Numbered from the stretch's first letter, positions 33,090 through 58,208 are shown. The stretch is DNA of 64,000 bases from an uncultured Pseudomonadota bacterium (GCA_963836235.1 CAWIIP010000002.1:1-64000); one strand, 5' to 3'. Notes: generated by a model from the letters alone, not told the origin. Translations and numbers: made by a program.

Positions 33090-34433
33090 TTAAGTCTGGT
33101 CCCCTTCCACGTCCACTGATTGCCCGGTTTTCGCGGGGGCCTTTTCATTGAGTTGTTTGCCCTGAGCGTCGAATTTCTCATAGGACCCGTCGTTCAGGAT
33201 TAATTTAATTTCCATGGCCCCTTTGCTGTTCTTAGAAAACTTCACGTCCTTGACGTCGCTTTCCAGGAAAAGAGGCTTAAAGGAGTTTTTCGCCGAATCA
33301 TAAAGAAAGGCGTCGCCCTCTCCCCCGACAATCTTCACCATACGCGTTTTGTCTTGGCTGGGGAATTCGACGATGTCCTTGGACAGGTTTGAATTCTCTT
33401 CCATGTTGGATGACCCGGCCACATTGCCGTTCGTCGGAGGTTGGTTATAACTATTCCCGCCCGCGTTCGCGTCGGCCTGGTCGGTAGGCGCATAGTTGCC
33501 ATTTTCATAAATGTAAACCGTGTTCGTTCCCGGATCCTGCCAATACCACTCGTTACCCCACCAATAGCACCAACGGGCTCCCCAGGAATCGTACCACCAC
33601 CAATTATCTCCATAATATTGGGTCCAAAAGAAAGAATCACCCCAGCACCAGCCAAACCAGTTACAACCCCAGCGATCGAAATAGTGGCAATAGTTCCAGC
33701 CACCCCAAGAATGCCAATAGTAATTGTTCCGGAGGACATCGGAGCGGTTAAGGGATGCGATCCTACCTGAGAAAGCAGTGCCGCGGGAAATGGAGGCCAT
33801 ATGACTTGTCACCAGGGATGAATTCATCCGGCTGGGAGAAACCAGGGAAGCTGAAAAAGCCTTGCCCGACGGTCCCGTGCTTGGAAGCTTTACTACTGAG
33901 TGTTGAAGAGAATGCGGAAGCAAGGAACTATGGCTCAGCGGACGAGGAGAACCAGAAACATAGGAATGGGTAAAAGCTCCCGTTGAAGTGTTGAAGTGAT
34001 GAAGATTTGTTGAATTGGAATGGAAGTTAGCGCCGTTCGAGCCATGCGCGCCATAGGAACGGTTGAAATGACGGACTTGGCCGTATCCGTACGATCCATA
34101 AGTACCCCGTTGGTAATAGCCGTTGCCCCCCGAACGGAAATTTCCCCCGTTGGAACGGGAAGAATTGGAATAAGCGTGGTTATTGTTGTTGGACGAATGA
34201 TCCGAAGAATCGAAAGAACCGGCGTTTGACCCGGAAGAACTGTCGCCCCCACCGCGATCACTCCCGCCACTGCCACCTCGGTCATCACCACCGCTCCAAC
34301 CACCGCCTCCACCTCCACGGTCTCCCCCGCCGCTCCAGCCGCCTCCCCCGCCGCCAGCCCCCGCATCGCGAGCCAAAATTGCTCCGGCCGGAAGGGATAA
34401 TAGGATTGCCAATAACCAGGTTATTTTCTTCAT
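33090..34433 (-). CDS. Secreted Gly/Ser/Asn low-complexity protein with Trp/Tyr/Cys-rich domain (paralog 2)
   Basis: Same architecture and motifs as 24866..26206 (LHHFN, YYWHSWGGWNYCHYFDRWGCNWFGW, FWTQYYG, VYIYEN, VKIVGGEGDAFL..KPLFL). Confidence 0.8.
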   Translation of the reverse strand: MKKITWLLAILLSLPAGAILARDAGAGGGGGGWSGGGDRGGGGGGWSGGDDRGGSGGSDRGGGDSSSGSNAGSFDSSDHSSNNNNHAYSNSSRSNGGNFRSGGNGYYQRGTYGSYGYGQVRHFNRSYGAHGSNGANFHSNSTNLHHFNTSTGAFTHSYVSGSPRPLSHSSLLPHSLQHSVVKLPSTGPSGKAFSASLVSPSRMNSSLVTSHMASISRGTAFSGRIASLNRSDVLRNNYYWHSWGGWNYCHYFDRWGCNWFGWCWGDSFFWTQYYGDNWWWYDSWGARWCYWWGNEWYWQDPGTNTVYIYENGNYAPTDQADANAGGNSYNQPPTNGNVAGSSNMEENSNLSKDIVEFPSQDKTRMVKIVGGEGDAFLYDSAKNSFKPLFLESDVKDVKFSKNSKGAMEIKLILNDGSYEKFDAQGKQLNEKAPAKTGQSVDVEGDQT

Positions 34434-36006: not shown

Positions 36007-36699
36007 CTAAACCTTGCAACTAGCCTCGGCGACTTGATTTTCAACCCGGCCTTTTGAACATGCCTCACATTGGCTATTTCTTTCGGGAATAATGGAGCGC
36101 ACTTCCCTTTTTTGGATATCCACCTTCCAAAGCCGGTAAGGCCCTTCTTTCCGCGCCAACCGCAGGGCCTCGTGGGCCTGAAGATAACCAATGGCTTGTG
36201 AAAAAGAGCCCAAGACCCCCGCTTCTTGGCAAGTGGGCATGGCAAAAGGAGGAGGGATTTTAGGAATAAGACATCGAAGGCAAGCCGTCACGCCCGGAAG
36301 AACAGGCAAAACCTGGCCCTCAAACTTTACGACCCCCGCGTGGACAAAGGGCTTTCCCAATTTCACGCACCAGTCATTCAGCAAAAACTTTTTTTCTAGC
36401 CGGTCCAAACCATCAATGACCAAATCATAGGGTTCCAGTATCTTTTCCGCGTTCGAGGAGCCAAAAGCTTCGGGCATAAGCAATGTTTTGGTTTGGGGAC
36501 ACTGCTTCTTTAGGTATTCCTCGGCGGTTTCCACTTTGGGGCGTCCCAAGTCCTTTTCGGAATAAAGGATCTGGCGGTGAAGATTCGATAGTTCCACCTT
36601 GTCCGGGTCCATTAGGCCCAGTGTTCCAACACCCGCCTCGGCCAATAAGATGGACGCAGGACAGCCCAATCCCCCCACACCCACAATTAATATTTTCAT
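36007..36699 (-). CDS. moeB: MoeB/ThiF-family adenylyltransferase lacking the N-terminal RYSRQ segment
   Basis: GVGGLG, DPDKVELSNLHRQ, DGLD, CLRC, TCQEAGVLG, CEAC; an in-frame TGA 15 nt upstream excludes an N-terminal extension. Confidence 0.88.
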   Translation of the reverse strand: MKILIVGVGGLGCPASILLAEAGVGTLGLMDPDKVELSNLHRQILYSEKDLGRPKVETAEEYLKKQCPQTKTLLMPEAFGSSNAEKILEPYDLVIDGLDRLEKKFLLNDWCVKLGKPFVHAGVVKFEGQVLPVLPGVTACLRCLIPKIPPPFAMPTCQEAGVLGSFSQAIGYLQAHEALRLARKEGPYRLWKVDIQKREVRSIIPERNSQCEACSKGRVENQVAEASCKV

Positions 36700-36714
36700 T
36701 TTTTTACCGCACCC

Positions 36715-36909
36715 TCAAAAGAAGCCAAAAGCCAAAATGACGGCCCCCGATCCGATCAAGGAATAGCCAAGCGTGAGTAAAAGGAAATAATTCCAGGGGA
36801 TTCCGTTTTCTTTTTTGGCGTTGGCCGAGTAAATGGAAAACATGCCGGATAGTTGAAGCACAATAAATCCCAATATTCCCAAAGCCAACCCACCCATAAA
36901 ATAACCCAA
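36715..36909 (-). CDS. Small two-TM hypothetical protein
   Basis: 64 aa with two hydrophobic segments; fills the gap between the AKR and moeB genes. Confidence 0.55.
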   Translation of the reverse strand: MGYFMGGLALGILGFIVLQLSGMFSIYSANAKKENGIPWNYFLLLTLGYSLIGSGAVILAFGFF

Positions 36910-36928
36910 TATTCACCGCCTCAGAATA

Positions 36929-37912
36929 TCAATAGGGGCCCCGAATATGGGCCGCTACTTCTGTTTGATAAAATTCTTTTAGCTTCCGGTGTAGTTCCCC
37001 GGAAAGAGGCGGCAAGTCGCTGGCTTTCGCGTTTTCAACCGCCTGTTCCGGGTTTTTGGCGCCGGGAATAATCGTGGTCACTGCGTCGAAATCCAGGCAC
37101 CAGCGGTTTGCCATTTGGCTCAAGCTCATTCCCGACGGTACCATGGATTTCAATTTATCCGCCAGTTCAACACCCTTCTCAAAAGGGAGGCCCGCGAAAG
37201 TCTCCCCGACATTAAAAGCCTGACCGTCCCGGTTATAAGTCCGGTGATCCTGGGGAGAGAACTTCGTGTCCTTCTTGTATTTTCCCGCTAAAAGCCCACT
37301 GGCGAGGGATAAACGGATGATGAGGGATACCTTTTTCGCCTTGGCTTTCTCAAAAAGAACATCGATAGGTTTTTGGCGGAAGAGATTGAAAATGATTTGG
37401 AGGGACGCCAAACATTCTTGTTCCATGCAAAAAAGGCCTTCCTCCATGGATTCCACGCTGGCGCCAAAATTTTTGATCTTGCCTTCTTTTTTCAAAAGCC
37501 TCAGCCACTCGAACACTTCCCCGCGCTTCAAAACATCGAAAGGCGCGCAATGGAGTTGGGTCAAATCCAATGCTTCTAGACCCAACCTTTGGAGCGAATT
37601 TTCGGTGTGCTGGCGGAAAGCGTCCCAAGTAAAATTTTGAGGCCATCCGGGCTTTGAAAAACGGATGAGCTTGGTGGCGATAAAGACCTTGGACTTGGAT
37701 TGCTTCAGGAACTTCCCGATGATGCTTTCACTGCGGCCCATCCCATAAACATCCGCCGTATCAAAAAAATGTACCCCGGCCTCGACCGAAGCTTGAAGGG
37801 TCTTTAAAGCCGTGTCTTCCGACACTTCGCCCCAATCTCCCCCAAATTGCCAGGTTCCGACACCTACTTCCGAAACCTTGCTTCCCGTATCAGCGAATAG
37901 CCTTTGTTTCAT
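36929..37912 (-). CDS. Aldo/keto reductase
   Basis: GVGTWQFGGDWG, FFDTADVYGMGRSE, ATK, SLQRL, LQIIFNLFRQ, IIPGAK. Confidence 0.93.
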   Translation of the reverse strand: MKQRLFADTGSKVSEVGVGTWQFGGDWGEVSEDTALKTLQASVEAGVHFFDTADVYGMGRSESIIGKFLKQSKSKVFIATKLIRFSKPGWPQNFTWDAFRQHTENSLQRLGLEALDLTQLHCAPFDVLKRGEVFEWLRLLKKEGKIKNFGASVESMEEGLFCMEQECLASLQIIFNLFRQKPIDVLFEKAKAKKVSLIIRLSLASGLLAGKYKKDTKFSPQDHRTYNRDGQAFNVGETFAGLPFEKGVELADKLKSMVPSGMSLSQMANRWCLDFDAVTTIIPGAKNPEQAVENAKASDLPPLSGELHRKLKEFYQTEVAAHIRGPY

Positions 37913-37954
37913 GTTGATAAGCCTTCTTCCATTCCCCTTCAAGGGAACAGCCTT

Positions 37955-39283
37955 TCATTGGTTTGCGGACCTGACCACTATAATTTTATTTAACTCCCGC
38001 CCATCCTTCGAGTAAATCGCGAAATAAGAGCCCAAGGGTACATCATGCCCTTGGTCATCTTTTCCATCCCACTCGACCCAGGCATCGGCTTGGGCCACGA
38101 CTTTCTTTTCGAACAAGTTCCGCAAGGGATGTAGCGCGCCATCAAAAACCTCCAACCGATAAATCCCTGGCCCATCGGCGAAACTGATGTAAATATTAGC
38201 AGGCGGTTCCCCGAAGACAATGGTTTCGGCCTGTTGGCCCGTTGCTTCCTGGGTAAAAGAAGAGGTCGGAGTGGGTAAAAAGAGGTTTTCTTGCACTGCG
38301 GGAGCATTGACCACAACGGGCTCGGCGACGTCCCTGGGCGCGAATTCAAATGTGGGCGTCGGCTTTGGCCTGGCTTTTTTCCGGCGCGTTGGGGGCTTGG
38401 GTATGGCTGGCCTTGGAAACACCGGTGTCGAAGTGACGATCGGCCAGCTGGGCGGCAACTGGGTCGGCAAGGGTGATGGCCGCCACTGCGGGACGACTTC
38501 GGGTATCTTTGTCGGAACCGGCATCGGAGCCAACCAGGACGAAACCGTCGCGGTCGGTAGGGGTTCCTCCCTTACCACCTTTCGGGCCAGTGGGACCGGA
38601 GCCATCTCGGCCACTGTTTGCGGAGCGCAATAAGGATTAGGCCCGATATCCAAATAAATCTTTCTACGGTAGAGATGTCTCTCTCCGGGATATTGAGACC
38701 TTGAGCTAGTACCCGTGGCCGAAAGAAATTGGGCCGCCAAATTTGTTTCGGGGTCGGTCAATAGGGCCAGATTCGGTATAGATGTTCCAGTGCTTTGCGC
38801 TTCGAGCCAGCCACTGTCGTCAAAAGCCAGCTTCCGCCAGCCCCGTGGCTCGGCCTCCATCCGGTTCGGGATATAGGCCGATCTATGGTCGGCCAGGTCG
38901 TTGCTGGAAAGGGTTAATTCCGCGCCATTCGAAAAACGAAGCCGAAGGATATAGGCAAGTCCAACCCGGTCGTCGACAGGTTGCGGAACCTTGTAGGCGT
39001 CCTGATTCTCTATGGCTAATATGTTTTCCCTTTGGAAATAACATAAGTGTTGGGGGGTACATATAATTTTTTGGAGTCCCGTGGAGTCGGGAGTTCTGCG
39101 GAGGCTATCCACGATTTGAATGTCGTTTAGCCAAATATCGGCCCAATCATCGACGGAAATATATATCGTGGCTCCGGTTAGGTATGGGCGCTGATCTTGC
39201 GAATAGGCCGGTAAGGCAAGGAATATCCCGACAAGTACCCGTGCAAATACGGCATAACTCCGAAGCTTTCTCATCCTCATCAA
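37955..39283 (-). CDS. Exported protein: beta-sandwich/lectin-like domain, Pro/Thr-rich linker, C-terminal FlgD-Ig-like domain
   Basis: Signal peptide; ISVDDWADIWLN, W....FDDSGW; PTPT linkers; EVFDG...RNL...WDGKDDQGHDVPLGSY. Confidence 0.65.
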   Translation of the reverse strand: MMRMRKLRSYAVFARVLVGIFLALPAYSQDQRPYLTGATIYISVDDWADIWLNDIQIVDSLRRTPDSTGLQKIICTPQHLCYFQRENILAIENQDAYKVPQPVDDRVGLAYILRLRFSNGAELTLSSNDLADHRSAYIPNRMEAEPRGWRKLAFDDSGWLEAQSTGTSIPNLALLTDPETNLAAQFLSATGTSSRSQYPGERHLYRRKIYLDIGPNPYCAPQTVAEMAPVPLARKVVREEPLPTATVSSWLAPMPVPTKIPEVVPQWRPSPLPTQLPPSWPIVTSTPVFPRPAIPKPPTRRKKARPKPTPTFEFAPRDVAEPVVVNAPAVQENLFLPTPTSSFTQEATGQQAETIVFGEPPANIYISFADGPGIYRLEVFDGALHPLRNLFEKKVVAQADAWVEWDGKDDQGHDVPLGSYFAIYSKDGRELNKIIVVRSANQ

Positions 39284-40221
39284 GTCAATTCATTGCGGTG
39301 TCTTTGGACGTAAAAAGCCACCTCTGCCCCGAATAAGATGACAGTCCAGGAAAGAAAAAACCAAATCAGGATCACCGGGACCATCCAGAGGGCTCCGTAA
39401 ACGTGGGAACGCTCCAACACTTTCAAGGTATACCAATTCATCGCCCATCGGGCCGTTTGCAAAAGGGCCGCCACCAGCAAGCCTGTCAAGATGGCGGATT
39501 TATGCTCCACTTCGGTATTGGGTATCCAGATATACATCCAAGCGCAGGCCGACCAAAGAAGGACAAAGGGTATCACCGTTGAGAAAAGCCAATGGTGGAC
39601 GGAAGGGTGGAGGATATTCCAACTTCCCACCCATCCTTTCAAGGTCAAAAGAAGAAGGGCCAATAGCGGCATTCCAACGAAAAAAGTGGCGTGACGAATC
39701 ATTTGGTCGATTACAGGCCTTCCTTTTTCAACGCCCCAAAGCAAATTGAAAGAATTTTCAACATCTCTCATCAGGAAAAACACAATGGCCAGGAAGCCCA
39801 TGAAGCCAATAATCCCGGCCTTTTGGGAATAGAGCGCGAATTTTTTGACTGACAGGCGGATCTGCTGCTTCCCCACCTGGTTCAATTCCTCGAGGTTTTT
39901 CGGTTCGTCGGGGTCCAGGAAGGAATTGGTGGTTTCGGTCTGGACGGGATAAATGGCGTCTACAATCTGGTCAAGAAGCTGTTCCCTCTTTTGGCTGAAG
40001 GCGTCGCTGGAGAGGACCGCCATGATAATGGCCAACGCCGGTACCAAGGCCAAGAGAGTCTGAAAGGCAAGCGACCTGGCGTAAAGGCGCTTGTGTCCTC
40101 GGGTGCGATCATTATTTTTCCGCAATACCTGCCCGGTGGCCCAAAGGACGGCTTTAAAGTCCCCCCATATACCCTTAGAGGGTTGTTGCCGAAGCCGGTG
40201 ATGTCCGTAAAAATGGGCCAA
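39280..40221 (-). CDS. YihY/BrkB-family membrane protein
   Basis: SLAFQTLLALVP.LA, E.SFN.LWGV, Y.WIPN, YGAL..VPVIL.W.FLSW..ILFGAE. Confidence 0.9.
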   Translation of the reverse strand: MAHFYGHHRLRQQPSKGIWGDFKAVLWATGQVLRKNNDRTRGHKRLYARSLAFQTLLALVPALAIIMAVLSSDAFSQKREQLLDQIVDAIYPVQTETTNSFLDPDEPKNLEELNQVGKQQIRLSVKKFALYSQKAGIIGFMGFLAIVFFLMRDVENSFNLLWGVEKGRPVIDQMIRHATFFVGMPLLALLLLTLKGWVGSWNILHPSVHHWLFSTVIPFVLLWSACAWMYIWIPNTEVEHKSAILTGLLVAALLQTARWAMNWYTLKVLERSHVYGALWMVPVILIWFFLSWTVILFGAEVAFYVQRHRNELT

Positions 40222-40275
40222 AATCTCTCCCTAGAGATTAGAATATGGCCCATTGTAAGCAAAAAAAGGCGGTCC

Positions 40276-40920
40276 ATGAAGAATATCCCCCATCTCGATT
40301 CACGTCCTCCAAAGACCCTTCCTTTGCGTTATTCGACTCCGCCCAAATGGGCAGACCAAGTCCTGAAGGAACCCCTCGCCCTTCTTTCAGATCAAGCCTA
40401 CCTGGAAAAGAAGGCCGCCAATAATGCCTTGGAGTTCATGAACCTCTGGCCCACAGCCGAAGCCCCTCTCAATTGGCTTTCTTCGATTGCCACCATTGCT
40501 CAGGATGAAACCTCTCATTTAAGAATGGTTTTGAGACTCTTGGAAAAACGGGGCGGAAAGCTGGAACGATCCCACAAAAACCAATATGCCCTGGACTTGC
40601 GGCAATGCATCCGCAAAGGCAAGGGCCAGCAAGACTTGGCCGACCGCCTGCTGGTTTCGGCTTTGATCGAGGCACGATCTTGTGAAAGGTTTGAACGGCT
40701 AGTGGAGGCAGGAACCGACGCTGAATTGTCGAAGTTCTACGCAGGTTTAATCGAATCCGAAAACGGCCACTATCAGTTATTCGTGGATATGGCGAAGAAG
40801 GTCTTGCCCGCCAAGGAAGTTAAAAATCGTTGGGATAAGTTGCTGGATATCGAAGCCGAAATCATCCAGGCCCAACCACCCGGACATCGGATTCACAGCG
40901 GGGTTTCTGGAGCTTGGTAG
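40276..40920 (+). CDS. miaE: tRNA ms2i6A37 hydroxylase (ferritin-like)
   Basis: L.Y.TP..W, LEKKAANNAL, DE..H, DRLLVSALIEARSCERF, FY..L..SE.GH, RIHS. Confidence 0.85.
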   Translation: MKNIPHLDSRPPKTLPLRYSTPPKWADQVLKEPLALLSDQAYLEKKAANNALEFMNLWPTAEAPLNWLSSIATIAQDETSHLRMVLRLLEKRGGKLERSHKNQYALDLRQCIRKGKGQQDLADRLLVSALIEARSCERFERLVEAGTDAELSKFYAGLIESENGHYQLFVDMAKKVLPAKEVKNRWDKLLDIEAEIIQAQPPGHRIHSGVSGAW

Positions 40921-41059
40921 AATAATATACCAATATCAGATACTTACTTAGTTGATCCACATCAGAAATGGAAAAAGACAGGATAAAAATAATTAAAGAT
41001 GATTTCTTAAAAAGGACACTAAGCAGCTCAATCTAAAATTTAGAAAACCAAAGGCACTT

Positions 41060-42262
41060 ATGATTATCAGAAAAGTAATGTTATTGCTTACTGTTTACTT
41101 TTTTTCATCGCTTACATTCGCCGATAACAACGGCTTCAATTTCTTGAGCATTTCTAATAATCCATACACTTATGATGGCGGCACATTGGCTGTCACAATC
41201 AAGGTAAGCAGATTAAAAGAGGACTACGAAGGTTTAGACTTGAACCTAGAGTCTATTTTTGATTTCCAATATTTTGATGTGGTTTCGGATGATTCTTCTA
41301 GCTCCGTTCTAAAAATAGCAGCTCACAACTTTAAAATTCATTTCAACCTAAAAAATAATATAAAAATTATCCAAAACGGGAGCAACGATTCTTCACATTC
41401 AAAAGAAGTTAAATTCACATTTAAAATTCTCCCTCATGCTGGGTTTAGTTATTCGATCAATTGCACCGCAGCTTTATTGGGAAGCAACAAAAAAACCGAA
41501 ACCGTCATTTACGGTCCTTCTCGATTTTCCTTTTACAACCTCGATCCTTCTTTCAAAGGTTTTTTCGAAAAAGCTCTTGTAGATGCCCGTGAAGAAGTTT
41601 GGAACAATATTTTAAAAACCATGTGGTTAGATAAAAAAAACTTAAATCTGGCCTTTATTAAAGAAAACTATCCTCTCAAAAACTTCGATGTTCTTGTTGG
41701 GAACTTAAAAGGAAAGGGCAATGATCAACTCATACTTAACCTCGGTAGTTATTTAGGAATGGGTGGTTCCAAATACGGCGTTTTCGTTTTCGATTTTGAT
41801 AAAACCGGATATAAAAAAATATTTTCAAAACTCGGTTACGAAGTTTCCACACAGGTAATAACGTGGAGCGGTAAAACGGGCTTATTAGTTTGGGATAGTG
41901 AATATGACGGTAAAGATTCTAATGCCCAATTACTTTTATACAAAGATGGCCAAATTGTTCCGGTTCTCGATTACGCTTTTTCGAATTGTATTGTTCACGT
42001 TGGTTGTAGTTTCAGAACATTTCTTGACGACAGAAACAATAAGTTGTACTTGTACAAGATGAACGGCCAGAACGATGGGGATGGCCACATTGGTTGTTAT
42101 TCAATTAAAAAACAACCTCTTCTTTGGGACGAAAAAAATTTCAAATTTGATCCGGGCGCAGAAACAATCGTAAGTAAAGAGGATTTAGATTCGCTTAAGA
42201 AGTCCTATGCTAATTCAGCTAACGATTTGGCCTGGATAGAAATTTGTCCCAATGGCAAATGA
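41060..42262 (+). CDS. AT-rich exported hypothetical protein
   Basis: 400-aa ORF with signal peptide; DNA visibly more AT-rich than the flanks; no family recognised. Confidence 0.75.
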   Translation: MIIRKVMLLLTVYFFSSLTFADNNGFNFLSISNNPYTYDGGTLAVTIKVSRLKEDYEGLDLNLESIFDFQYFDVVSDDSSSSVLKIAAHNFKIHFNLKNNIKIIQNGSNDSSHSKEVKFTFKILPHAGFSYSINCTAALLGSNKKTETVIYGPSRFSFYNLDPSFKGFFEKALVDAREEVWNNILKTMWLDKKNLNLAFIKENYPLKNFDVLVGNLKGKGNDQLILNLGSYLGMGGSKYGVFVFDFDKTGYKKIFSKLGYEVSTQVITWSGKTGLLVWDSEYDGKDSNAQLLLYKDGQIVPVLDYAFSNCIVHVGCSFRTFLDDRNNKLYLYKMNGQNDGDGHIGCYSIKKQPLLWDEKNFKFDPGAETIVSKEDLDSLKKSYANSANDLAWIEICPNGK

Positions 42263-42318
42263 GGAAGTTATCTGTTTTTCCAAATGTAACCCGGATCACT
42301 TGCCAAAAAGACTGGCCC

Positions 42319-42951
42319 TCAGTGATAAGCTTTTTCCAAAGCGTTCACAAAAGTTTTCACATCCTGTGCGCCCGATATTACGAACTTGTCGTTAAAAACA
42401 AAAAATGGGACCCCATTGACACCAATATCATAGGCCTTTTCCTCCGCCCCTCTCACCTCTTCCTCAAATTCATTCCCTTTTAAAAGTTTCTCTACCTTGG
42501 CCTTGTCCAACCCAGCGGAAACAGCCACTTCCACCAGAGTCTTGGTATCCCCCAGGTCCCTACCCTCGGTGAAATAGGCCTTAAAGAAAGCGTTATGGGC
42601 CGCATTACCCTTCCCTTCCTTTTCCGCCAACCAAAGAATCCGGTGGGCGTTAAAGGTGTTGGGGGTTCTTTCAATATCATCAAACCGATAATCAATTCCC
42701 GATTCTTTGCCAAGAGCCGTCAACCGGGCATGGGCTTGGTCCAGCACATGGGTTCCCCCAAACTTTTCGGCCAGGTGCTTTTTGTGGTCCAATCCTTCGG
42801 CTGGAGTAGCCGGATTCAATTCATAGGGTAAAAAGTGGACTTCGGCCTCGGCTTTCTTCCCTGAAGCTTCCAAGGCCTCTTCCAGCCGCTTCTTCCCCAA
42901 ATAGCACCAGGGGCAAATCACATCTGAATAAACGTCGATCTTTAAGCTCAT
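42319..42951 (-). CDS. DsbA-family (FrnE-like) oxidoreductase
   Basis: SDVICPWCYLGK, PYELNP, NTFNAHR, GVPFFVF, ISGAQ. Confidence 0.93.
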   Translation of the reverse strand: MSLKIDVYSDVICPWCYLGKKRLEEALEASGKKAEAEVHFLPYELNPATPAEGLDHKKHLAEKFGGTHVLDQAHARLTALGKESGIDYRFDDIERTPNTFNAHRILWLAEKEGKGNAAHNAFFKAYFTEGRDLGDTKTLVEVAVSAGLDKAKVEKLLKGNEFEEEVRGAEEKAYDIGVNGVPFFVFNDKFVISGAQDVKTFVNALEKAYH

Positions 42952-43044
42952 GGCTTTCTCCTTGCTTGACCCAAGATATGGTTTTTCCCTTGGGGAAATA
43001 AGCCCTTCTCTGATTTTTTGAGTTACCCCGGATATACTGGGGCC

Positions 43045-43449
43045 ATGAAAACATTAAAAATTCAAACCTCCGAGCGGGAACACATTCGGGATATTACTTC
43101 CCACATCCGTGAATGGGTGGCTAAAGGGGGTTACGAATCCGGTCTTTTGGCGGTCTATTGCCCCCATACCACCGCCGCCATAACCATCAATGAAAATGCC
43201 GATCCTGACGTGAAACGGGACATTCTATTTCACCTCAAAAAAACAATTCCTCAATCGCCGGAATTCAAGCATTTCGAGGATAACGCAGATGCCCATATCA
43301 AATCGGTTCTAATCGGATTCTCTTTGGCCCTTATCGTGGAAAAAGGAGAGATTTTACTGGGCCGCTGGCAGGGAATTTACTTTTGTGAGTTCGACGGACC
43401 GAAAGAGCGAGAAGTTTGGCTCAAGTTTATCGGCGGCAAAGACCCCTAA
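43045..43449 (+). CDS. yjbQ: YjbQ/UPF0047 protein (secondary thiamine-phosphate synthase family)
   Basis: PHTTAAITINENADPDV, H.EDNADAHIK, LGRWQGIYFCEFDGP. Confidence 0.93.
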   Translation: MKTLKIQTSEREHIRDITSHIREWVAKGGYESGLLAVYCPHTTAAITINENADPDVKRDILFHLKKTIPQSPEFKHFEDNADAHIKSVLIGFSLALIVEKGEILLGRWQGIYFCEFDGPKEREVWLKFIGGKDP

Positions 43450-44393
43450 CCGCCCTCTTTCTCGAATTCCTCTTCGAGACTGAAGTAGCGCTCGCCCATA
43501 TCACAGCAAATAGTTACGATTCGGGCTTCCGGGCCTAATGTCTTGGAAAGTTTCAAGGCCGCGGCCACATTGGCGCCGGAGGAAATCCCCAAAAGCAAGC
43601 CTTCTTCACGAGCCAAGCGCTTCGTCATTCGGTAGGCTTCCAAGTCTTCAATTTGAATGAGTTCATCTATTACTGACCGGTTCAAAACAGATGGTACAAA
43701 CCCGGCGCCGATGCCTTGGATGCGATGGACCCCCGCTTTTCCACCCGAAAGCACCGCCGAGGAAGCAGGCTCCACCCCGACGATTTTGATTTTCGGGTTC
43801 TTGGCCTTGAAATATTCCCCTACCCCGGTGATGGTCCCGCCGGTACCGATACCCGCCACGAAAGCGTCCAATTTTCCTTCGGTATCCTTTTCGATTTCCG
43901 GCGCCGTAGTCCTTTTGTGGGCTTCAGGGTTAGCCCGGTTGGCGAACTGTTCGGGCATAAAATATTCGGGATGCTGTTTCTTGATTTCCTGGGCCTTGCG
44001 GACCGCTTCCGCCATCAATCCCTTGGCCGGGGTTAAAACCAGTTCCGCCCCATAGGCCTTCAAAAGAACTCGCCGCTCCTGGCTCATATCCTCAGGCATC
44101 ACGAGAATCAGCTTATATCCTCTTTGAGCGCAAACCAGGGCCAAGCCGATTCCAGTATTGCCGCTGGTGGGTTCCACCAAGGTTCCACCGGGCTTCAATA
44201 AACCCCGGTGCTCCGCGTCGTCGATCATGGCCAGGGCGATACGGTCTTTCACACTACCGCCCGGATTATAAAATTCCAATTTGCAAAGGATTTGGGCCCG
44301 GCCCTTTTCCGGAATGGCTTGAAGTTTTAAAAGAGGCGTGTTTCCAATGATTTCGGTAATGTTGGAAGCCAGGGGATACCGGTTATAGGTCAT
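43446..44393 (-). CDS. cysK: Cysteine synthase A
   Basis: IGNTPL, KLEFYNPGGSVKDR, EPTSGNTGIGLA, GIGTGGTITG, HRIQGIGAGF, GISSGAN, D.GERY.S. Confidence 0.95.
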   Translation of the reverse strand: MTYNRYPLASNITEIIGNTPLLKLQAIPEKGRAQILCKLEFYNPGGSVKDRIALAMIDDAEHRGLLKPGGTLVEPTSGNTGIGLALVCAQRGYKLILVMPEDMSQERRVLLKAYGAELVLTPAKGLMAEAVRKAQEIKKQHPEYFMPEQFANRANPEAHKRTTAPEIEKDTEGKLDAFVAGIGTGGTITGVGEYFKAKNPKIKIVGVEPASSAVLSGGKAGVHRIQGIGAGFVPSVLNRSVIDELIQIEDLEAYRMTKRLAREEGLLLGISSGANVAAALKLSKTLGPEARIVTICCDMGERYFSLEEEFEKEGG

Positions 44394-45058
44394 GGAGTGA
44401 CGACCGCACCCTCTTCCAATAGCCGGGCGGGGCATTTATAAGTCGGCTGGACTTCATGATGATAAGACACGCCCGAATCCAAGGAAGTAATCCAAACCTT
44501 GCCTTCCAAAGGCGACTGCCCCTTCAATATCCATTGAAGGGCTTCGGAAGCGGCCATCGCCCCCATCAGGCGTTGCACGGATGGCTGTCCCTTCGTGAAA
44601 GCTTTTGGATTCATGATTTCAAAACATTCCAAACAAGGACATTGGCCGCCTTGATGGCGAATAGCCAAGAGAGCGAATCCGCTTCCGGCCGGCCAAGCAT
44701 ATAGGGCGGGTTTAGCTTGGTGTCTCAGCCAACGGCTCAGACGCCGTCGGGCTTCTTTATTCTCAGTGGAAACCACCGTAAGGGACGCATTTGGTAGATA
44801 CTCAAACTCCTCGGGCAGAACGTCCACTTGCAGGTTTGGAAATTGGGATGTCAGCGCAAAGGATTCGAAATTTCCATAAGAAAGGACAAAAAGTTTGGAG
44901 ATGCCTACCGAGGCCAAGGCGGTGGCGGCAGACTGGAGGGCAATGCCTTCTCCTACCAACAACACGGAAGATTCCAACCATTTTTTCTGGCCTTCCGGCC
45001 CAACCGAGGAAAGGATAACCTGCCGGGAAAACCGGTCTTGGCTATTCGATGTCGGCAT
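44390..45058 (-). CDS. Degenerate ThiF/MoeB-like protein (keeps RFSRQ, lacks the ATP-binding motifs)
   Basis: DRFSRQVIL..VG.EGQKK, then VGEGIA instead of GxGGLG, no DxDxVxxSNLxRQ segment; CLEC and MGAMAASEAL retained. Confidence 0.75.
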   Translation of the reverse strand: MPTSNSQDRFSRQVILSSVGPEGQKKWLESSVLLVGEGIALQSAATALASVGISKLFVLSYGNFESFALTSQFPNLQVDVLPEEFEYLPNASLTVVSTENKEARRRLSRWLRHQAKPALYAWPAGSGFALLAIRHQGGQCPCLECFEIMNPKAFTKGQPSVQRLMGAMAASEALQWILKGQSPLEGKVWITSLDSGVSYHHEVQPTYKCPARLLEEGAVVTP

Positions 45059-45063
45059 CCAGC

Positions 45064-45309
45064 TTACTCGACGATATCTTTGACGATTGGATTGACGTCG
45101 ATACCCTGTTTGGTGAGATCGTCCAATGCTTTTTTGACTTCCGGCTCTTCGCCCTCGATTTCCATTTGAACATAGCCAAAGCCCTTGGTAATGGAGGCCC
45201 GGCGGATGTTCACCGTAATTCCATATTTTTTTATGGTATTGGAAAGAACCGGTTGGGTGACAAGCTCGGTAGGATAATCCAGTTCAACAAGTTTCTTGAT
45301 GGCCGCCAT
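45064..45309 (-). CDS. NIL-domain protein
   Basis: L.YP..LV.QPV...I.K.Y.ITVNIRRASI....G...EIEG, G..V.PI..DIVE. Confidence 0.85.
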   Translation of the reverse strand: MAAIKKLVELDYPTELVTQPVLSNTIKKYGITVNIRRASITKGFGYVQMEIEGEEPEVKKALDDLTKQGIDVNPIVKDIVE

Positions 45310-45346: not shown

Positions 45347-45637
45347 TTAAGAATTCGGATGAATCCCACCGGCGATGGCTGGCACAATGGAAACTTGGTC
45401 ACCCGCCTTGACCATCGTGGCTTCCCCTTGCAGGAAACGGATGTCTTCTTCGTTGAGATAGATATTCACGAACCGGCGGATTTTTCCGTTTTCGTCGCAG
45501 AGGCGGTCTTTTAAACCGTTGTAGTTCTTTCCCAAATCGTTGATAAGGTCCGCAATCGTTGCGCCATCGGCGTTAACTTCAGCCTGGTTGTTGGTCAGAT
45601 TCCGTAAGGGAGTCGGGATCAATACTTTCGCTGCCAT
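45347..45637 (-). CDS. MoaD/ThiS/CysO-type ubiquitin-like sulfur carrier with a C-terminal extension
   Basis: VLIPTPLR.LT, RRFVNIYLNEEDIRFL, IVPAIAGG followed by IHPNS*; RBS AGGAGG. Confidence 0.92.
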   Translation of the reverse strand: MAAKVLIPTPLRNLTNNQAEVNADGATIADLINDLGKNYNGLKDRLCDENGKIRRFVNIYLNEEDIRFLQGEATMVKAGDQVSIVPAIAGGIHPNS

Positions 45638-45800: not shown

Positions 45801-47843
45801 TCACTTTTGAAGGGGAAATTCGGTCACTCTTAGCCGGGTCGACCCATAAGGAACCAAGGTCAGTTCTTCCATCGGAGCCGAACTCTCTACCGGACTTTGG
45901 GGTGGAGGTTCCGCCGCTCCTTGGACAAAAGACCAGGATTCCAACCGCCGTCCTTGGACCGACACTTTCACCGGGGCACCTTCCAAAGTAAAGGGATCAC
46001 CTTTGAGAACGCCATCTTGGAAAGTCAGGCTCTTTTCGGGTGATTGGGGATCGAGAACCAGGGCATAATTCCAGGGACTCCGGGGCAAAAGCATGTAATC
46101 GCTTTTGCCTCCTCCCTTCGGCTCAAATTGGAAAGGCCGGAACCCCTTCCATAATTCTTTAAGGCCCAAGCTGAAAACAAGGGGTCCCCGTTCAACGCTA
46201 ACGGCGTCCTGGTAACCCCGCCTCACCTTAAAGGCCATGGGTAAATTAAGCTGAAGGGTCTCGTTCCCACTCCACTCGCGAAGTACTTGATGAAAACTTC
46301 CGGATTTCAGGTTTTCTTTGGTTCCATCTGGCAAGGTCAATATGGCCCCTTCCGTCCATTCAGGCACCCGGAAATAAATTGGGAACTTAGCCGGTTGGGC
46401 GGTCGTCACCTTGAATGTTAGATTTTCATTGAAGGGATAATTCGTCACCAATTCCACGCTCACTGGAACACCGGAAACCATGGTCTCAACCCTTGAAGGC
46501 GCGTAAACCACCGCGGCCAATCCCCCGTCCGGAGTTCCCATCCAAAGATGCGAAACAAACTTGGGCCAGCCTTGGTGAAAATTGGCCGTACAACAGCCAA
46601 ACTGGGGTTCCAATCCAAATAAATTGGCGACCCCGCTATTCGTGGAGTAAACCGGATTGGGATCAAAAACACAGGCGATTTGGTTCGCCTGTTCCACATA
46701 TTGGTGGGTCCAATAGTCCGGGGCGATGGCCGCGGGCAGGGCGTTGAAGGCAATCTTTTCCAACCGGTCCGCGAGGGCAACGTCCCCCAGCACCGAAAGC
46801 GAGTTTTCAAGGGAAAACATGGTTTCAACGATGGCGCATAGTTCGGTGCCTTGCGAAGGGCTTTTGCCTGCCAGGCACTCGTCGCCACTGAAAAGGCCAT
46901 TGGCCTCACCATGGTAGCGGTCCAATTCTGGAAGCGCCTTGAGGGCTATTTTTTTGAACCGGTCATCCCCCGTCAACCTGTAAAGCATCGCGGGGGTTTT
47001 GATACCCATAGCGTTGTTCACCACATGTCCCGCCCAATTCCATTGTGGGGACTTCTCCTTGACGGGTAAGTCGGAAAAATGCTTGGGCCAGTTATATCCC
47101 TGGCTAGCCGCTTTATAAGCCAGGTCCAACAGCCAGCTCTCTTTTGTGCGGTCATAAAGCCAATAAAGGCTCACCAATAGGTCGCCCCAACGAAAAAAAT
47201 TCCAGGCGAATAGGGGCCGTGAATCTAATTGGGAATTCAAGGACCCCAGATCCTTGAGCATGGCCGGGATAATCCGCTTATCCCCCGTGGCTTCCTGGTA
47301 CTGGGCCAAACCCTTCAGGATAACGAACTGCGGCCAGGGGTCCCTTGCGGCATTTGGGGGACCCTTAGTGCCAAAAGGCCCCTTCCCCTGCTCCGGACCC
47401 AACCACCCGTCTGATTGCTGATGGGAAAGGATATAGTCGACCCAACGCTTGGCTTTGCCTTCAAGCCTTTCGTCGCCAGTAAGGAAGGCCAGGGGGATCA
47501 TGCCATCCAGCCAATAGGGCGCCCGCTCCCAGCCTTCGGCCTTTCCTCCTATCCACCCACTGTCTTTAATATCCGGCCAAAACTCGTCCAAATGGCCCGA
47601 CTGCCCGCCCGCTTGGAGTTTCAATTGGTCCAACAGCCAGCCTTCGGGTTTGACCGTTCCCAAGGGTAATGGCTGAAAAGCCAGCGGTTCCAAACCCAAA
47701 GGCCTGTTGGCGATCTTTTCCTGTTGATGGCGGTTATAAAGAACCCAAGTCAACAAGGCCAATCCCATGAAAATAAAAATCAAAAGTAGTCTCGTTAAGG
47801 AAAAAAAATTTTTGGGGGGTGCTGGGGGAATCAGTTCTTCCAT
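45801..47843 (-). CDS. Membrane-anchored GH127/GH146-type beta-L-arabinofuranosidase-like hydrolase
   Basis: LPLG.VKPEGWL..QL, WERAPYWLDG, HVVN, TELCAIVE.M, DRLE.IAFNALP, CCTANFHQGWPK, T.YPF, ERGPLVF, LVPYG.T.LR. Confidence 0.88.
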   Translation of the reverse strand: MEELIPPAPPKNFFSLTRLLLIFIFMGLALLTWVLYNRHQQEKIANRPLGLEPLAFQPLPLGTVKPEGWLLDQLKLQAGGQSGHLDEFWPDIKDSGWIGGKAEGWERAPYWLDGMIPLAFLTGDERLEGKAKRWVDYILSHQQSDGWLGPEQGKGPFGTKGPPNAARDPWPQFVILKGLAQYQEATGDKRIIPAMLKDLGSLNSQLDSRPLFAWNFFRWGDLLVSLYWLYDRTKESWLLDLAYKAASQGYNWPKHFSDLPVKEKSPQWNWAGHVVNNAMGIKTPAMLYRLTGDDRFKKIALKALPELDRYHGEANGLFSGDECLAGKSPSQGTELCAIVETMFSLENSLSVLGDVALADRLEKIAFNALPAAIAPDYWTHQYVEQANQIACVFDPNPVYSTNSGVANLFGLEPQFGCCTANFHQGWPKFVSHLWMGTPDGGLAAVVYAPSRVETMVSGVPVSVELVTNYPFNENLTFKVTTAQPAKFPIYFRVPEWTEGAILTLPDGTKENLKSGSFHQVLREWSGNETLQLNLPMAFKVRRGYQDAVSVERGPLVFSLGLKELWKGFRPFQFEPKGGGKSDYMLLPRSPWNYALVLDPQSPEKSLTFQDGVLKGDPFTLEGAPVKVSVQGRRLESWSFVQGAAEPPPQSPVESSAPMEELTLVPYGSTRLRVTEFPLQK

Positions 47844-47868
47844 GAGGTTCTCCTTGGAAGAGAATACA

Positions 47869-48624
47869 TCAGGAAGGCTTGGCCAACAGCCGAGAAAGTG
47901 GCCTCCAAACCTTATCATGCGGTAGTTTTTCTTGAAAATATTTCCTGTCGGACCAATAGACCTTGTAAACGCCGGCTTTGGGCTTGGAAATAGCAACCCG
48001 ATATTTCTCTCCCATCACTTCCAAAGCCGCGCAATTGTCGATGGCGATGGCCACACCGGGGGGTTTTAGCATCATTTCTTTGAGTTCGGGTCTACGGTCT
48101 TTTTCAACATCGTAATGGGGACAGGCTAAGGCATCGATCAATCCTAACCCAGTGACCTTAATGAGTTTAGCCTTGGGATTGTGGAACTTGCGGGAATCCG
48201 AGTTCCCCTGGCGGAACCAACAAATGGCCCCAGCGCTGGGCCCGCAAAGCACTTTCCCCTTTTTTTCGGCTTGTTTTAAGAGTCCCACAACCCCAAGCTT
48301 TTTCCAACGGTTGATCATCAAGAGGGTATTACCACCTCCGACATAAATAATGTCAGCAATCCTTATTTTTTTAGCGATTTCTGAATATTTCGGGGGTTGT
48401 TTCAGGAGAAAAAGCGAGTCCACCCGGCATCCCAATTTGTTTCCAAAATGATTTTGGACCGCTCGGACATAAGCTTTGTCGTCCGAACTGGCAGTAGGAA
48501 TAAAAAGAAGACGGGGGACCTTCTTGCCTGAAAGCCGGATGATTTCCCGGCTAATCGACATCACTTCAGGCTTGGCCGCGCCGAACCCGATGCTTCCCCC
48601 GCCAATGGCAACGATTTTCCGCAT
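47869..48624 (-). CDS. Peptidase E / S51-family (GATase1-like) protein
   Basis: IVAIGGG, FIPTASSD, IYVGGGNT, G.SAGAICWF, CPHYD. Confidence 0.9.
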   Translation of the reverse strand: MRKIVAIGGGSIGFGAAKPEVMSISREIIRLSGKKVPRLLFIPTASSDDKAYVRAVQNHFGNKLGCRVDSLFLLKQPPKYSEIAKKIRIADIIYVGGGNTLLMINRWKKLGVVGLLKQAEKKGKVLCGPSAGAICWFRQGNSDSRKFHNPKAKLIKVTGLGLIDALACPHYDVEKDRRPELKEMMLKPPGVAIAIDNCAALEVMGEKYRVAISKPKAGVYKVYWSDRKYFQEKLPHDKVWRPLSRLLAKPS

Positions 48625-49082: not shown

Positions 49083-50315
49083 TCAAGCCGGAACCAAATG
49101 CGTCGCCTCGAAAGCGGCTAGGTTGGGTTGGATGATATTCAATGCTTTCAAGTGATCCGTCACCGCCTCCTGGGTTTTCAACCCCGTCCCAGTGATATAG
49201 GCCACCGTAACCGCGTCCGGGTTCAAAGCGCCAGCCTCGGTCAGTTTTTTCAGACAGCCGATAGTAACTCCCCCTGCCGTTTCGGCGAATATTCCTTCGG
49301 TACGAGCCAAGAGTTTTATCCCTTCCACAATTTCCTCATCCGTCACCATTTCGGCTCCGCCGTTGGACTCCGCGATGGTTCTTAAAGCGTAGAACCCATC
49401 CGCCGGATTGCCGATGGCCAGGGATTTGGCGATAGTATTGGGCTTGACAGGTCGGAAAGTATCGGTCTTGGCTTTGTAGGCCGTCGTCACCGGCGAACAA
49501 CCCGTGGCTTGCGCCCCGAAAACCCTCATGTCTTTCTTCTCAATCAAGCCGACCTTGATGAACTCCTGCGTGCCTTTCCAAATCTTAGTCAACAGAGACC
49601 CCGAAGCCACCGGAACCACCACTTGGTCGGGCGCTTTCCATCCTAATTGCTCCGCCACCTCAAAAGCCAAGGTCTTGGATCCTTCGGCATAATAGGGTCG
49701 CATATTGATATTCACGAAGGCCCATTTGTATTTCCCGGCAATTTCGCTGCAAAGCCGGTTAACGTCGTCATAATTGCCGTTCACCCCGATTAAGTTCGGA
49801 TCATAAATAAGGGAAGCCGTGACCTTGCTGGATTCAAGATTTGAAGGAATGAAAACAAACCGTTTCATGCGGCCCCTGGCACCATAGGCCGAAACCGCGT
49901 TGGCCAGGTTGCCCGTGGAGGCGCAGGCTAATGTGTCAAAGCCCAGTTCCAAAGCTCTGGTAGAAGCAACGGCCACAACTCGGTCTTTGAAGGAATGGGT
50001 GGGATTGGCACAATCGTTTTTGATATAAAGATTGGAAAGTCCCAGCTCTTCGCCCAGTCGTTCAGCGCGAATAAGAGGGGTATAACCTTCCTCCAGGGTG
50101 TTATAACGATCCCCTTCGATCGGCAGAAACTCCCTGTAACGCCAAATGTTCAAGGCCCGTGAGGCGATCTTTTCCCGGGAAACATCCTTTTTAATTTTGT
50201 CGTAATCGTAAGCCGCTTCCAAGGGTCCGAAGCAAAACTCACAGACGTATTTGGCCACCTTTTCATACTCTTGGCCACACTCACGGCATTTCAGCGCTTT
50301 CACATAACTCATCAT
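49083..50315 (-). CDS. Threonine-synthase paralog under SAM-I control (candidate sulfur-carrier-dependent homocysteine synthase)
   Basis: CRECG..Y...CEFCFGPLE, NPTHSFKDRVV, ASTGNLA, N.RPYYAEGSKT, SGSLLTKI, KSLAIGNPADG, ETAGGVT. Confidence 0.85.
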   Translation of the reverse strand: MMSYVKALKCRECGQEYEKVAKYVCEFCFGPLEAAYDYDKIKKDVSREKIASRALNIWRYREFLPIEGDRYNTLEEGYTPLIRAERLGEELGLSNLYIKNDCANPTHSFKDRVVAVASTRALELGFDTLACASTGNLANAVSAYGARGRMKRFVFIPSNLESSKVTASLIYDPNLIGVNGNYDDVNRLCSEIAGKYKWAFVNINMRPYYAEGSKTLAFEVAEQLGWKAPDQVVVPVASGSLLTKIWKGTQEFIKVGLIEKKDMRVFGAQATGCSPVTTAYKAKTDTFRPVKPNTIAKSLAIGNPADGFYALRTIAESNGGAEMVTDEEIVEGIKLLARTEGIFAETAGGVTIGCLKKLTEAGALNPDAVTVAYITGTGLKTQEAVTDHLKALNIIQPNLAAFEATHLVPA

Positions 50316-50400: not shown

Positions 50401-50521
50401 CTCTCATCTCACCCCGGTTTTTTTGATTCAACCGAAGCAGGAATTGGCACCTAACAGTTCCTTACGGAACCTGGTTGCCGTGGCATCGCAGGGCCTGTCC
50501 CTCCGCCACTCTGGATAAGAG
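50401..50521 (-). ncRNA. SAM-I (S-box) riboswitch
   Basis: RNA CUCUUAUCCAGAGUGGCGGAGGGACAGGCCCUGCGAUGCCACGGCAACC...GGUGCCAAUUCCUGC...GAGAUGAGAG, matching the S-box consensus. Confidence 0.95.
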
Positions 50522-57146: not shown

Positions 57147-58208
57147 TTACAACTTGAGGGCCCTGAGGATTTCTCCCATATCAGGCTTGATGACCGTGGG
57201 TTTATTGCTTCTCAAAATCGCCGTATCGGGATCTTTTAAGCCGTGGCCCGTCAAGGTACAAACAATTCTTCTTTTGCCGTCGATGAAATACCCTTCTTTG
57301 TTTTTCTTAATGACTCCGGCTAACGAGGCGGCCGAAGCCGGTTCGCAAAAGATACCTTCCATGGCCGCCAACATCTCGTAAGCCAAAAGAATTTCCTCGT
57401 CTGTTACAGCCTCGATCAAACCGCGGGACTCGTTCCGGGCCGCCTCGGCGGCCTTCCAAGAAAAAGGATTCCCAATTTTAATGGCGGTGGCAATGGTATG
57501 GGGATTCTCAATGACCCTCTGTTCGACGATAGGAGCCGACCCCGCCGCCTGGAACCCACACATGCGGGGCAGTTGGGTGGAAAGGCCCTTCAGTTTATAT
57601 TCCTTATACCCTTTCCAGTAAGCGGTGATATTCCCGGCGTTACCCACGGGGATAGCGTGATATTCGGGAGCGTCCCCGATGGTGTCGACAATCTCGAAAG
57701 CCGCTGTTTTTTGACCTTCCAAACGGTAGGGGTTGTTGGAATTGACCATGGTAATGGGATGTTCCTCCGCCAATTCGCGGGTCAATTTCAGGGCCTGGTC
57801 GAAGCTTCCCTCGACCGCCAAAACCTTCGCCCCGTAAATCATGGACTGGGCCAGTTTGCCCAAGGCGATGGAACCGTGGGGCAAGAGAACCGCACAGGAA
57901 ATGCCCGCGTGGGCCGAATAGGCCGCAGCGGCCGCGGAAGTATTTCCGGTGGAAGCGCAAATGACGGCCTTGGCACCCTCCTCGACCGCTTTGGACATGG
58001 CCATGGTCATGCCCCGGTCCTTAAAGGAACCGGTGGGATTAAGGCCCTCGAACTTCAAATAGATATTAAGGCCATTCCCGAGTTTCTTGGAAATGTTTTT
58101 GGCGTGGATGAGCGGGGTGTCGCCCTCTTTCAAGGTGATGACGGGCGTTTTTTCCGTAACCGGCAAATAGGCCCGGTATTCCTCAATAACACCCTTCCAA
58201 TAAGGCAT
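57147..58208 (-). CDS. thrC: Threonine synthase (housekeeping)
   Basis: NPTGSFKDRGM, CASTGNTS, PVGNAGNI, TIATAIKIGNP, EPASAA, TGHGLKD; adjacent to hom. Confidence 0.95.
   Translation of the reverse strand: MPYWKGVIEEYRAYLPVTEKTPVITLKEGDTPLIHAKNISKKLGNGLNIYLKFEGLNPTGSFKDRGMTMAMSKAVEEGAKAVICASTGNTSAAAAAYSAHAGISCAVLLPHGSIALGKLAQSMIYGAKVLAVEGSFDQALKLTRELAEEHPITMVNSNNPYRLEGQKTAAFEIVDTIGDAPEYHAIPVGNAGNITAYWKGYKEYKLKGLSTQLPRMCGFQAAGSAPIVEQRVIENPHTIATAIKIGNPFSWKAAEAARNESRGLIEAVTDEEILLAYEMLAAMEGIFCEPASAASLAGVIKKNKEGYFIDGKRRIVCTLTGHGLKDPDTAILRSNKPTVIKPDMGEILRALKL

Follow-up and report, generated by a model that had tools for sequence, protein, structure and literature searches.

Two short genes on the minus strand of the window examined here (the whole stretch of DNA analysed, 64,000 nucleotides (nt) long; GCA_963836235.1 CAWIIP010000002.1:1-64000, from an uncultured Pseudomonadota bacterium of soil) probably encode the two subunits of one E1-like adenylyltransferase, a reading that we put, from computational evidence alone, at roughly two in three. 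The first, at 36007..36699, encodes an arm-less but motif-complete ThiF/MoeB-type adenylyltransferase of 230 amino acids (aa), the proposed active subunit; the second, at 44390..45058, encodes a degenerate ThiF-like protein of 222 aa with an N-terminal, arginine-bearing arm, the proposed inactive and arm-donating subunit. In ThiF/MoeB dimers, the N-terminal helix reaches into the active site of the partner. Here, the 230-aa subunit would provide the ATP/Mg pocket, the zinc site and the crossover-loop Cys while lacking the N-terminal helix, and the 222-aa subunit would supply that helix with its invariant Arg12, having kept the dimerisation helix and a four-Cys site but lost nucleotide binding, so that the two complementary halves would give the heterodimer one complete active site. 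The reading draws on the anatomy of the two sequences, the conservation of both families, their co-occurrence, their linkage to a sulfur-carrier operon and their recurrence in a second lineage; from these we infer that the two proteins bind each other and that Arg12 is donated in trans.

Anatomy of the two ThiF-type proteins

The Pfam match (PF00899) of the 230-aa protein spans profile positions 22-237 of 238 (E-value 9.4e-64), and its translation contains the motifs VGVGGLG, DPDKVELSNLHRQ, DGLD, CLRC, CEAC and PTCQEAG. The elements that characterize adenylation by ThiF and MoeB are all there, namely the Rossmann GxGxxG, the Asp after strand 2, the Arg of SNLxRQ, the Lys and the Mg-binding Asp, and so are those of the zinc site and crossover loop (C140-x-x-C143, C211-x-x-C214 and C157 of PTCQEAG, all conserved). 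Within the arm-less family, the G-loop GVGGLG, D31/D33, S38-Q43, K55, D96/D99 and both CxxC motifs are invariant. What is missing is the N-terminal helix with the Arg of RYxRQ and the GxxGQ motif, which is absent from the 230-aa protein as well as from all 30 aligned relatives; the latter start 2-7 residues ahead of strand 1 and keep all catalytic residues. The best 120 matches among arm-less homologues measure 143-266 aa, those covering most of the query about 216-266 aa. An in-frame TGA lies 15 nt 5' of the ATG at 36699 and closes an open reading frame (ORF) for a 64-aa membrane protein (36715-36909), and therefore no N-terminal arm can be encoded before 36699.

A further feature of the arm-less family is a near-invariant Cys (residue 228) positioned 2-3 residues from the C-terminus, which is also present in a full-length, CysK-linked ThiF relative (locus L046). 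Because the arm-less protein has no rhodanese domain, Cys228 could be a candidate persulfide relay site.

In the 222-aa protein, the PF00899 match is restricted to profile positions 1-56, that is, to the arm (E-value 1.3e-10; 41.3 bits at a cut-off of 28.1). The protein contains QDRFSRQVILSSVGPEGQKKW, with an arm region reading QDRFSRQ...GPEGQKK. Its G-loop has become GEGIAL, and the Asp after strand 2, the Arg of SNLxRQ and the DxxD motif are all gone from the translation; the nucleotide- and Mg-binding motifs of the PF00899 family are thus lacking, while the overall fold of that family is retained. The AlphaFold2 (AF2) model reached a mean predicted local distance difference test score (pLDDT) of 89.8, with low confidence for the N-terminal 20 residues, and its best Foldseek matches were MoeB (1jw9_B) and ThiF (1zud), with a template modelling (TM) score of 0.76 and an E-value of 1e-14. 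A sub-threshold match of this protein to the leader-peptide-binding domain of thiazole/oxazole-modified microcin (TOMM) systems (TIGR03882, E-value 0.0008, 19.7 bits versus a cut-off of 36.9) was rejected, its genomic context being wrong as well.

The degenerate family comprises 93 related protein clusters, all of 155-243 aa. In 27 aligned clusters, R12, Q13, L16, V19, G20, G23, Q24, G36, G38, R104, R109, R112 and W122 are invariant, and the four-Cys set CPCLEC...KCP is nearly so. Expressed as mean top-residue frequency over 44 sequences, the best-conserved blocks are the arm (residues 11-20; 0.84) and the Cys cluster (141-150; 0.89), and the least conserved stretch is the former nucleotide pocket (residues 61-90; 0.33-0.35). 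On the sequence evidence, both truncated forms are conserved families and not one-off truncations, to a degree far beyond chance. The preliminary description, made from the sequence of the window, had ascribed just this anatomy to the two genes: an ATP pocket, both CxxC motifs and the TCQEAG Cys in the product of 36007..36699, a missing N-terminal arm behind an in-frame stop 15 nt upstream, and a product of 44390..45058 that keeps DRFSRQ..GQ.K and has lost the ATP motifs. Profile matches and translations bear this out in each respect, the upstream TGA being that of the 64-aa ORF.

Linkage, co-occurrence and the predicted complex

The gene for the 222-aa protein sits in a tight operon together with genes for a ThiS/MoaD-type sulfur carrier, a stand-alone NIL-domain protein and a CysK-type cysteine synthase. 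The order carrier, NIL, degenerate ThiF, CysK is found in 19 of 22 related loci, a twentieth being cut by the start of its contig, and in 9 of the 22 the arm-less gene follows 4-8 kb downstream on the same strand. In a genome of the sister family (G043), a contiguous operon consists of a MetM-like gene, carrier, NIL, degenerate ThiF, CysK and arm-less ThiF; the two ThiF genes are adjacent in G060 and 2.3 kb apart in G056. In two outgroup genomes (G037, G038), the gene directly after CysK encodes a full-length ThiF that bears the arm and shares 42-46% identity with the arm-less protein; next to it, neither a carrier nor a NIL nor a degenerate gene was detected. The simplest history that fits these outgroups would be that the CysK-linked ThiF lost its arm once a degenerate copy retaining the arm had appeared. 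A tree of 49 ThiF-type sequences splits into three classes with support values of 100, 92 and 86.

The distribution of the two types was surveyed in 99 genomes of the phylum, the window's order being represented by 32 genomes. Full-length matches to the degenerate family were confined to the window's family and the sister family; elsewhere in the phylum the same query matched only the arm of ordinary ThiFs, and this arm was present in all 22 ThiF genes fetched from other families. Within the order, both types occur in 28 genomes and the degenerate type alone in 2 (G055, 63% complete, and G058, 97% complete); 2 have neither, and none has the arm-less type alone, as expected if the two truncated types co-occur, a point on which the preliminary description had staked its proposal. 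The two genomes with neither type (G051, 96% complete; G054, 80%) are without NIL and carrier too and have kept a MoeZ-like gene. In one further genome (G052), both ThiF halves are kept, NIL and carrier not being found with the queries used.

Recurrence outside the order was sought in two ways. In a protein search, of which we considered the 150 best representatives from 1.84 billion proteins, most matches align from about residue 30, and most of these ThiFs therefore have an arm; a minority begin at the G-loop, several of which are arm-less ThiF-TusA fusions. One of them (P0216) goes on, after arm-less ThiF and TusA, into a further segment of the chain that has NRYARQ...GLDGQ and a degenerate G-loop; hhalign assigns this segment to the degenerate family with 94.5% probability. 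A search among proteins of 248-790 aa found the C-terminal segment in P0216 itself and in no other. We also observed that the fusions P0220, P0252 and P0216 stem from other, high-GC lineages. In a metagenome scan by generic patterns, 80 loci were kept, among which three (L050, L052, L073) have whole ThiF genes clearly without an arm, followed in each case by a MetM-like gene. The ThiF genes of L114 and L118 are cut by the contig end, and in L116, L119 and L127 the arm motif was unmatched, yet the degenerate-family profile aligns upstream of the G-loop. L073, an unrelated high-GC contig, encodes an arm-less ThiF, a MetM-like protein, a carrier ending in AIAGGC, a CysM-like enzyme, a NIL protein and an arm-bearing, degenerate ThiF-like protein of 180 aa, which hhalign aligns along almost its entire length with the degenerate family (95.9% probability). 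The same parts in a different order in so distant a contig are, at the level of sequence comparison, the strongest comparative argument that they function jointly.

Complex prediction, run with family alignments for both chains and with three controls, points the same way. The pair scored 0.93, 0.93 and 0.92 (best control 0.44), passing a mark that, when the tool was calibrated, 58 of 80 solved complexes attained, as against 2 of 110 mismatched pairs; at least 97% of the contacts were common to the runs, and the partner pLDDT was at least 87. The predicted interface joins the two dimerisation helices (residues 160-176 of the arm-less and 159-175 of the degenerate protein). In addition, the arm is predicted to lie, with residues 5, 8-13 (including R12), 15-16 and 18-19, on residues 37-38, 40-42, 44 and 47-48 of the arm-less protein, so that arm residues 8-13 face the SNLHRQ segment (residues 37-42) of its ATP site. 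Interface positions are slightly better conserved than the rest of the protein (0.78 versus 0.74 for the arm-less family, 0.70 versus 0.57 for the degenerate one), which is weak evidence.

The carrier operon and the proposed pathway

The carrier gene (45347..45637, minus strand, as are all window genes of this section; 96 aa; PF02597, E-value 4.8e-18) is closest to the NCBIfam models SAMP1 and moaD_arch, and its start at 45637 is supported by homologues that align from carrier residue 1. Its C-terminus reads AIAGG plus a 5-residue tail, IHPNS; AIAGG followed by 1-7 variable residues recurs in 20 of 21 homologous loci. The stand-alone NIL-domain protein (45064..45309; 81 aa; PF09383, E-value 2.6e-15) always adjoins the degenerate ThiF gene and is encoded between carrier and degenerate ThiF in 19 of the 22 related loci; in L073 it immediately precedes the degenerate ThiF-like gene. 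A protein that looked like a NIL-degenerate ThiF fusion (P0085) was discarded as a frame error: its source contig (L019) has both genes in pieces, with one TGA in G067. The cysteine synthase gene (43446..44435; TIGR01139 cysK, 446.5 bits versus a cut-off of 350.95), whose true start may be the ATG near 44393, follows the degenerate ThiF gene in 20 of the 22 loci.

Farther upstream, a threonine-synthase homologue matched by thrC-family models (49083..50315) is preceded by an S-adenosylmethionine (SAM) riboswitch (50401..50521; RF00162, 80.9 bits versus a gathering score of 44.4, E-value 1.8e-17) and is a candidate MetM-type, carrier-thiocarboxylate-dependent homocysteine synthase. A MetM-like gene is present in 14 of the 22 related loci (two of these copies being broken or cut by a contig end) and in two of six loci of a second locus set; in eight related loci, those of the sister family included, it lies immediately 5' of the carrier gene. 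Since the gene sits directly upstream of the carrier in many relatives, 49083-50315 probably encodes a MetM-type homocysteine synthase rather than ThrC. The second ThrC paralogue of the window (57177-58184; 37% identical to the riboswitch-controlled homologue) is probably the true threonine synthase. The MetM-like protein has an N-terminal, zinc-ribbon-like CxxC pair. Here and in L009, L012 and L019, genes for a GH127-like glycoside hydrolase (45801-47996) and a PepE/cyanophycinase-like peptidase (47869-48624) separate the MetM-like gene from the carrier gene; because the latter two adjoin in other relatives, the pair in between looks like an operon insertion. Promoter and terminator scans gave results no better than shuffles.

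On another contig of the same genome (L031 1459-2790), a gene for a CysM-like enzyme (306 aa) is immediately followed by one for a JAMM peptidase (136 aa; best NCBIfam model desampylase), a likely processor of the C-terminal tail of the carrier. The parts of a protein-thiocarboxylate pathway, a GG-ended carrier, sulfhydrylases dependent on pyridoxal 5'-phosphate (PLP) and a JAMM peptidase, are therewith all present in the genome. In the pathway that we propose, the tail of the carrier would be trimmed first, with the Mec-like JAMM peptidase of the other contig as the probable enzyme. The heterodimer would then adenylate the C-terminal Gly of the trimmed ThiS-like carrier (45347-45637), and the carrier, once thiocarboxylated, would give its sulfur to the CysK/CysM-type and MetM-type PLP enzymes, which would use it to make cysteine and homocysteine; the split enzyme would probably serve the production of cysteine and methionine. 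Both the carrier taken as substrate and the origin of its sulfur are inferred. The genome has only two ThiS-family carriers, that of the operon and a 67-aa ThiS adjoining ThiG, and two nucleotide-competent stand-alone ThiF enzymes, which allows a one-to-one assignment.

Two other observations concern neighbouring or related genes. A further contig of the genome (L003 433-2830) encodes a protein of 602 aa whose C-terminal domain is ThiF-like and, after it, a JAB-type peptidase of 198 aa; the two resemble a Cap2-like fusion of E2 and E1 and the peptidase that goes with it in anti-phage systems. Within the window, 33090-34433 (minus strand) encodes a secreted protein of 447 aa that has long low-complexity stretches rich in Gly/Ser/Asn, a Trp-rich segment and no obvious family.

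Alternative explanations and known systems

Several points weigh against the pairing of the two proteins. The predicted geometry equals that of solved ThiF/MoeB homodimers, and the pass in complex prediction may therefore reflect these structures; moreover, the score of 0.93 covers the heterodimer alone and expresses no preference over homodimers. The genomes with both types are kin and the genes are linked, so that joint presence and joint loss may each go back to single events. One genome of high completeness (G058) has a degenerate-type remnant that has lost its arm as well, and no arm-less gene. The fusion protein P0216 is a singleton, its contig is 1.9 kb long, and it may be the product of a faulty gene call or a frameshift, and the branches of the tree are too long to place the ThiF from which the degenerate family arose. 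The remaining points belong to specific alternatives.

One of these holds that the arm-less ThiF is a self-sufficient homodimer, perhaps by virtue of Arg100, and that the degenerate protein is a non-catalytic accessory, such as a scaffold or regulator acting with NIL, carrier or PLP enzymes. Arg100 does not vary within the arm-less family, its counterpart in arm-bearing relatives being Asn (DGLDR versus DGSDN), and might compensate in cis for the missing arm; the canonical dimerisation helix (residues 160-176) is kept in the arm-less protein, which may thus homodimerise too. An accessory role of the degenerate protein would also agree with the adjacency of NIL and degenerate genes in both lineages and with the conservation of R104, R109, R112 and W122 outside the predicted dimer interface. 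We nevertheless consider this explanation rather unlikely. The invariance of R12, Q13, G20, G23 and Q24 in the arm is hard to explain without an active site to serve, other arm-less ThiFs are without Arg at the position in question (TDS in L073, TDG in P0216 and TDH in P0220), and the arm-less type occurs alone in not one genome of the order.

A regulatory version of the split may be envisaged, according to which the arm-less enzyme would stay inert until the Arg arm of the degenerate protein is inserted, with NIL sensing methionine, cysteine or a related metabolite and controlling delivery of the arm. If so, assembly of the E1 would be the step at which carrier activation is turned on or off, and the synthesis of cysteine and homocysteine along with it. 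As a corollary, asymmetric E1s would have arisen in bacteria on at least two occasions through duplication with complementary loss, and the present pair would offer a living model for the beginnings of the eukaryotic E1 heterodimer. We regard this version as unlikely and mention it as a speculative extension.

Also to be weighed is the full-length MoeZ-like ThiF-rhodanese enzyme (386 aa, with arm) encoded on the same contig at a distance of 1.7 Mb, which might activate and thiocarboxylate the operon carrier, leaving the half-ThiFs with another or a redundant role. Its gene is complete, with arm and rhodanese domain; the arm-less protein has no rhodanese domain and would have to obtain sulfur via another protein; furthermore, MoeZ is the enzyme used in the MetO/MetM pathway, according to the available part of the GapMind 2026 preprint. 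Yet MoeZ-like genes persist in G051 and G054, the genomes devoid of carrier, NIL and half-ThiFs, so that the MoeZ-like enzyme has a role independent of the carrier operon; it is the half-ThiF genes, not MoeZ, that are linked to the carrier operon in two lineages, and ThiS adjoining ThiG is available as an alternative substrate for the MoeZ-like enzyme. On balance, its action as the activator of the operon carrier appears quite improbable to us. That one or both ORFs are functionless, decaying remnants of a duplicated ThiF can be dismissed as highly improbable: each ORF misses a segment held necessary in ThiF/MoeB, the G058 gene has lost its arm, and there are frame breaks in the NIL and degenerate genes of G067/L019, but both window ORFs are intact and conserved over many genomes down to 30% and 47% identity, with invariant motifs kept, confident fold prediction and conserved operon position.

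We thus favor two subunits of a single adenylyltransferase. The preliminary description had gone further and postulated an obligate active/inactive heterodimer, to be probed by complex prediction. The pairing as such has gained from co-occurrence, complementary anatomy and a predicted complex that scores well above its controls and places the arm on SNLHRQ, the score speaking for the heterodimer only and a homodimer likeness being possible; the word 'obligate' is unproven, and so is a role as sole activator, given the MoeZ-like enzyme in the same genome.

The sulfur-carrier activating enzymes of bacteria are the textbook homodimeric ancestors of ubiquitin E1s, and the asymmetric design of one inactive and one active half is regarded as a eukaryotic hallmark. 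If our reading is correct, E1 asymmetry can evolve where the setting is purely metabolic, through duplication followed by complementary loss. The pair would also provide two small soluble proteins for testing the contribution of the trans Arg, extend the newly described thiocarboxylate routes to cysteine and homocysteine by a dedicated activator and a NIL protein, and improve pathway annotation in uncultured soil bacteria.

Among known systems, the E. coli pairs MoeB-MoaD and ThiF-ThiS are closest in structure: they share fold and catalytic motifs with the 230-aa protein and the fold of the 222-aa model (TM 0.76), their substrate is likewise a ThiS/MoaD-type carrier with a GG end, and their dimers use the helix, and the contact of arm and SNLxRQ segment, that are predicted here as well. 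In the accessible part of a 2025 JBC review (PMC12355090), MoeB and ThiF are homodimeric, each subunit binding ATP and carrier, so that two sites work. In our case, arm and pocket are on separate polypeptides, so that only a single active site per dimer is possible.

The proposed division into an inactive and an active adenylation subunit would be shared with the eukaryotic E1s NAE1(APPBP1)-UBA3 for NEDD8 and SAE1-UBA2 for SUMO. As far as the text of Chambers et al. (PMC10557695) was available, the key Arg comes from the inactive half both in eukaryotic E1s and in BilD. Unlike the eukaryotic enzymes, both proteins described here are single ThiF domains, with neither an inserted catalytic-Cys domain nor a ubiquitin-fold domain; the carrier operon contains no E2-like gene, the context is sulfur transfer to amino-acid synthesis rather than protein conjugation, and the origin is independent, inside one bacterial order.

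BilD, from Bil antiviral operons, would resemble our proposed pair in being bacterial and in combining one inactive with one active adenylation domain. In the portion of the same paper at hand, it is a single chain composed of an inactive adenylation domain (IAD), an active one (AAD) and a CYS domain, the site being completed by Arg9 of the inactive domain, and it figures as the sole exception among known bacterial E1-like proteins, the others, including ThiF, MoeB and Cap2, being homodimers (PMC10557695). With its CYS domain, BilD acts together with an E2 in defence against phages; the genes considered here are two separate small ones without a CYS domain and belong to a metabolic operon.

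With regard to metabolic context, the nearest relatives are the CysO/CysM/Mec/MoeZ system of Mycobacterium and the MetO/MetM/Mec/MoeZ system of Streptomyces, for the latter of which Hasebe et al. 2024 is said to be the primary paper. In Streptomyces, following the excerpt available of the GapMind 2026 preprint, MetO is matured by Mec and loaded by MoeZ, and its thiocarboxylate feeds the ThrC-like MetM for conversion of O-phosphohomoserine to homocysteine. Common to these systems and ours are a carrier with GG plus a tail, PLP enzymes of the CysK/CysM and ThrC-like types and a JAMM peptidase, whose gene here adjoins a CysM-like gene; the MetM-like gene is preceded here by a SAM riboswitch. The CysO and MetO pathways use one full-length ThiF-rhodanese enzyme, MoeZ, whereas we find ThiF split into a pair and NIL as a stand-alone protein, both absent from the two descriptions. 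The available part of Iyer et al. 2006 (PMC1779556) lists operons of carrier, E1 plus rhodanese, JAB and cysteine synthase, without an inactive E1 partner or NIL. In the literature covered, which was incomplete, we met neither an inactive/active ThiF pair made of two genes nor NIL in a sulfur-carrier operon. Judged by these analogies, the system looks like the MetO/MetM pathway joined to CysO/CysM-type cysteine synthesis, equipped with a split activator and a NIL protein of its own.

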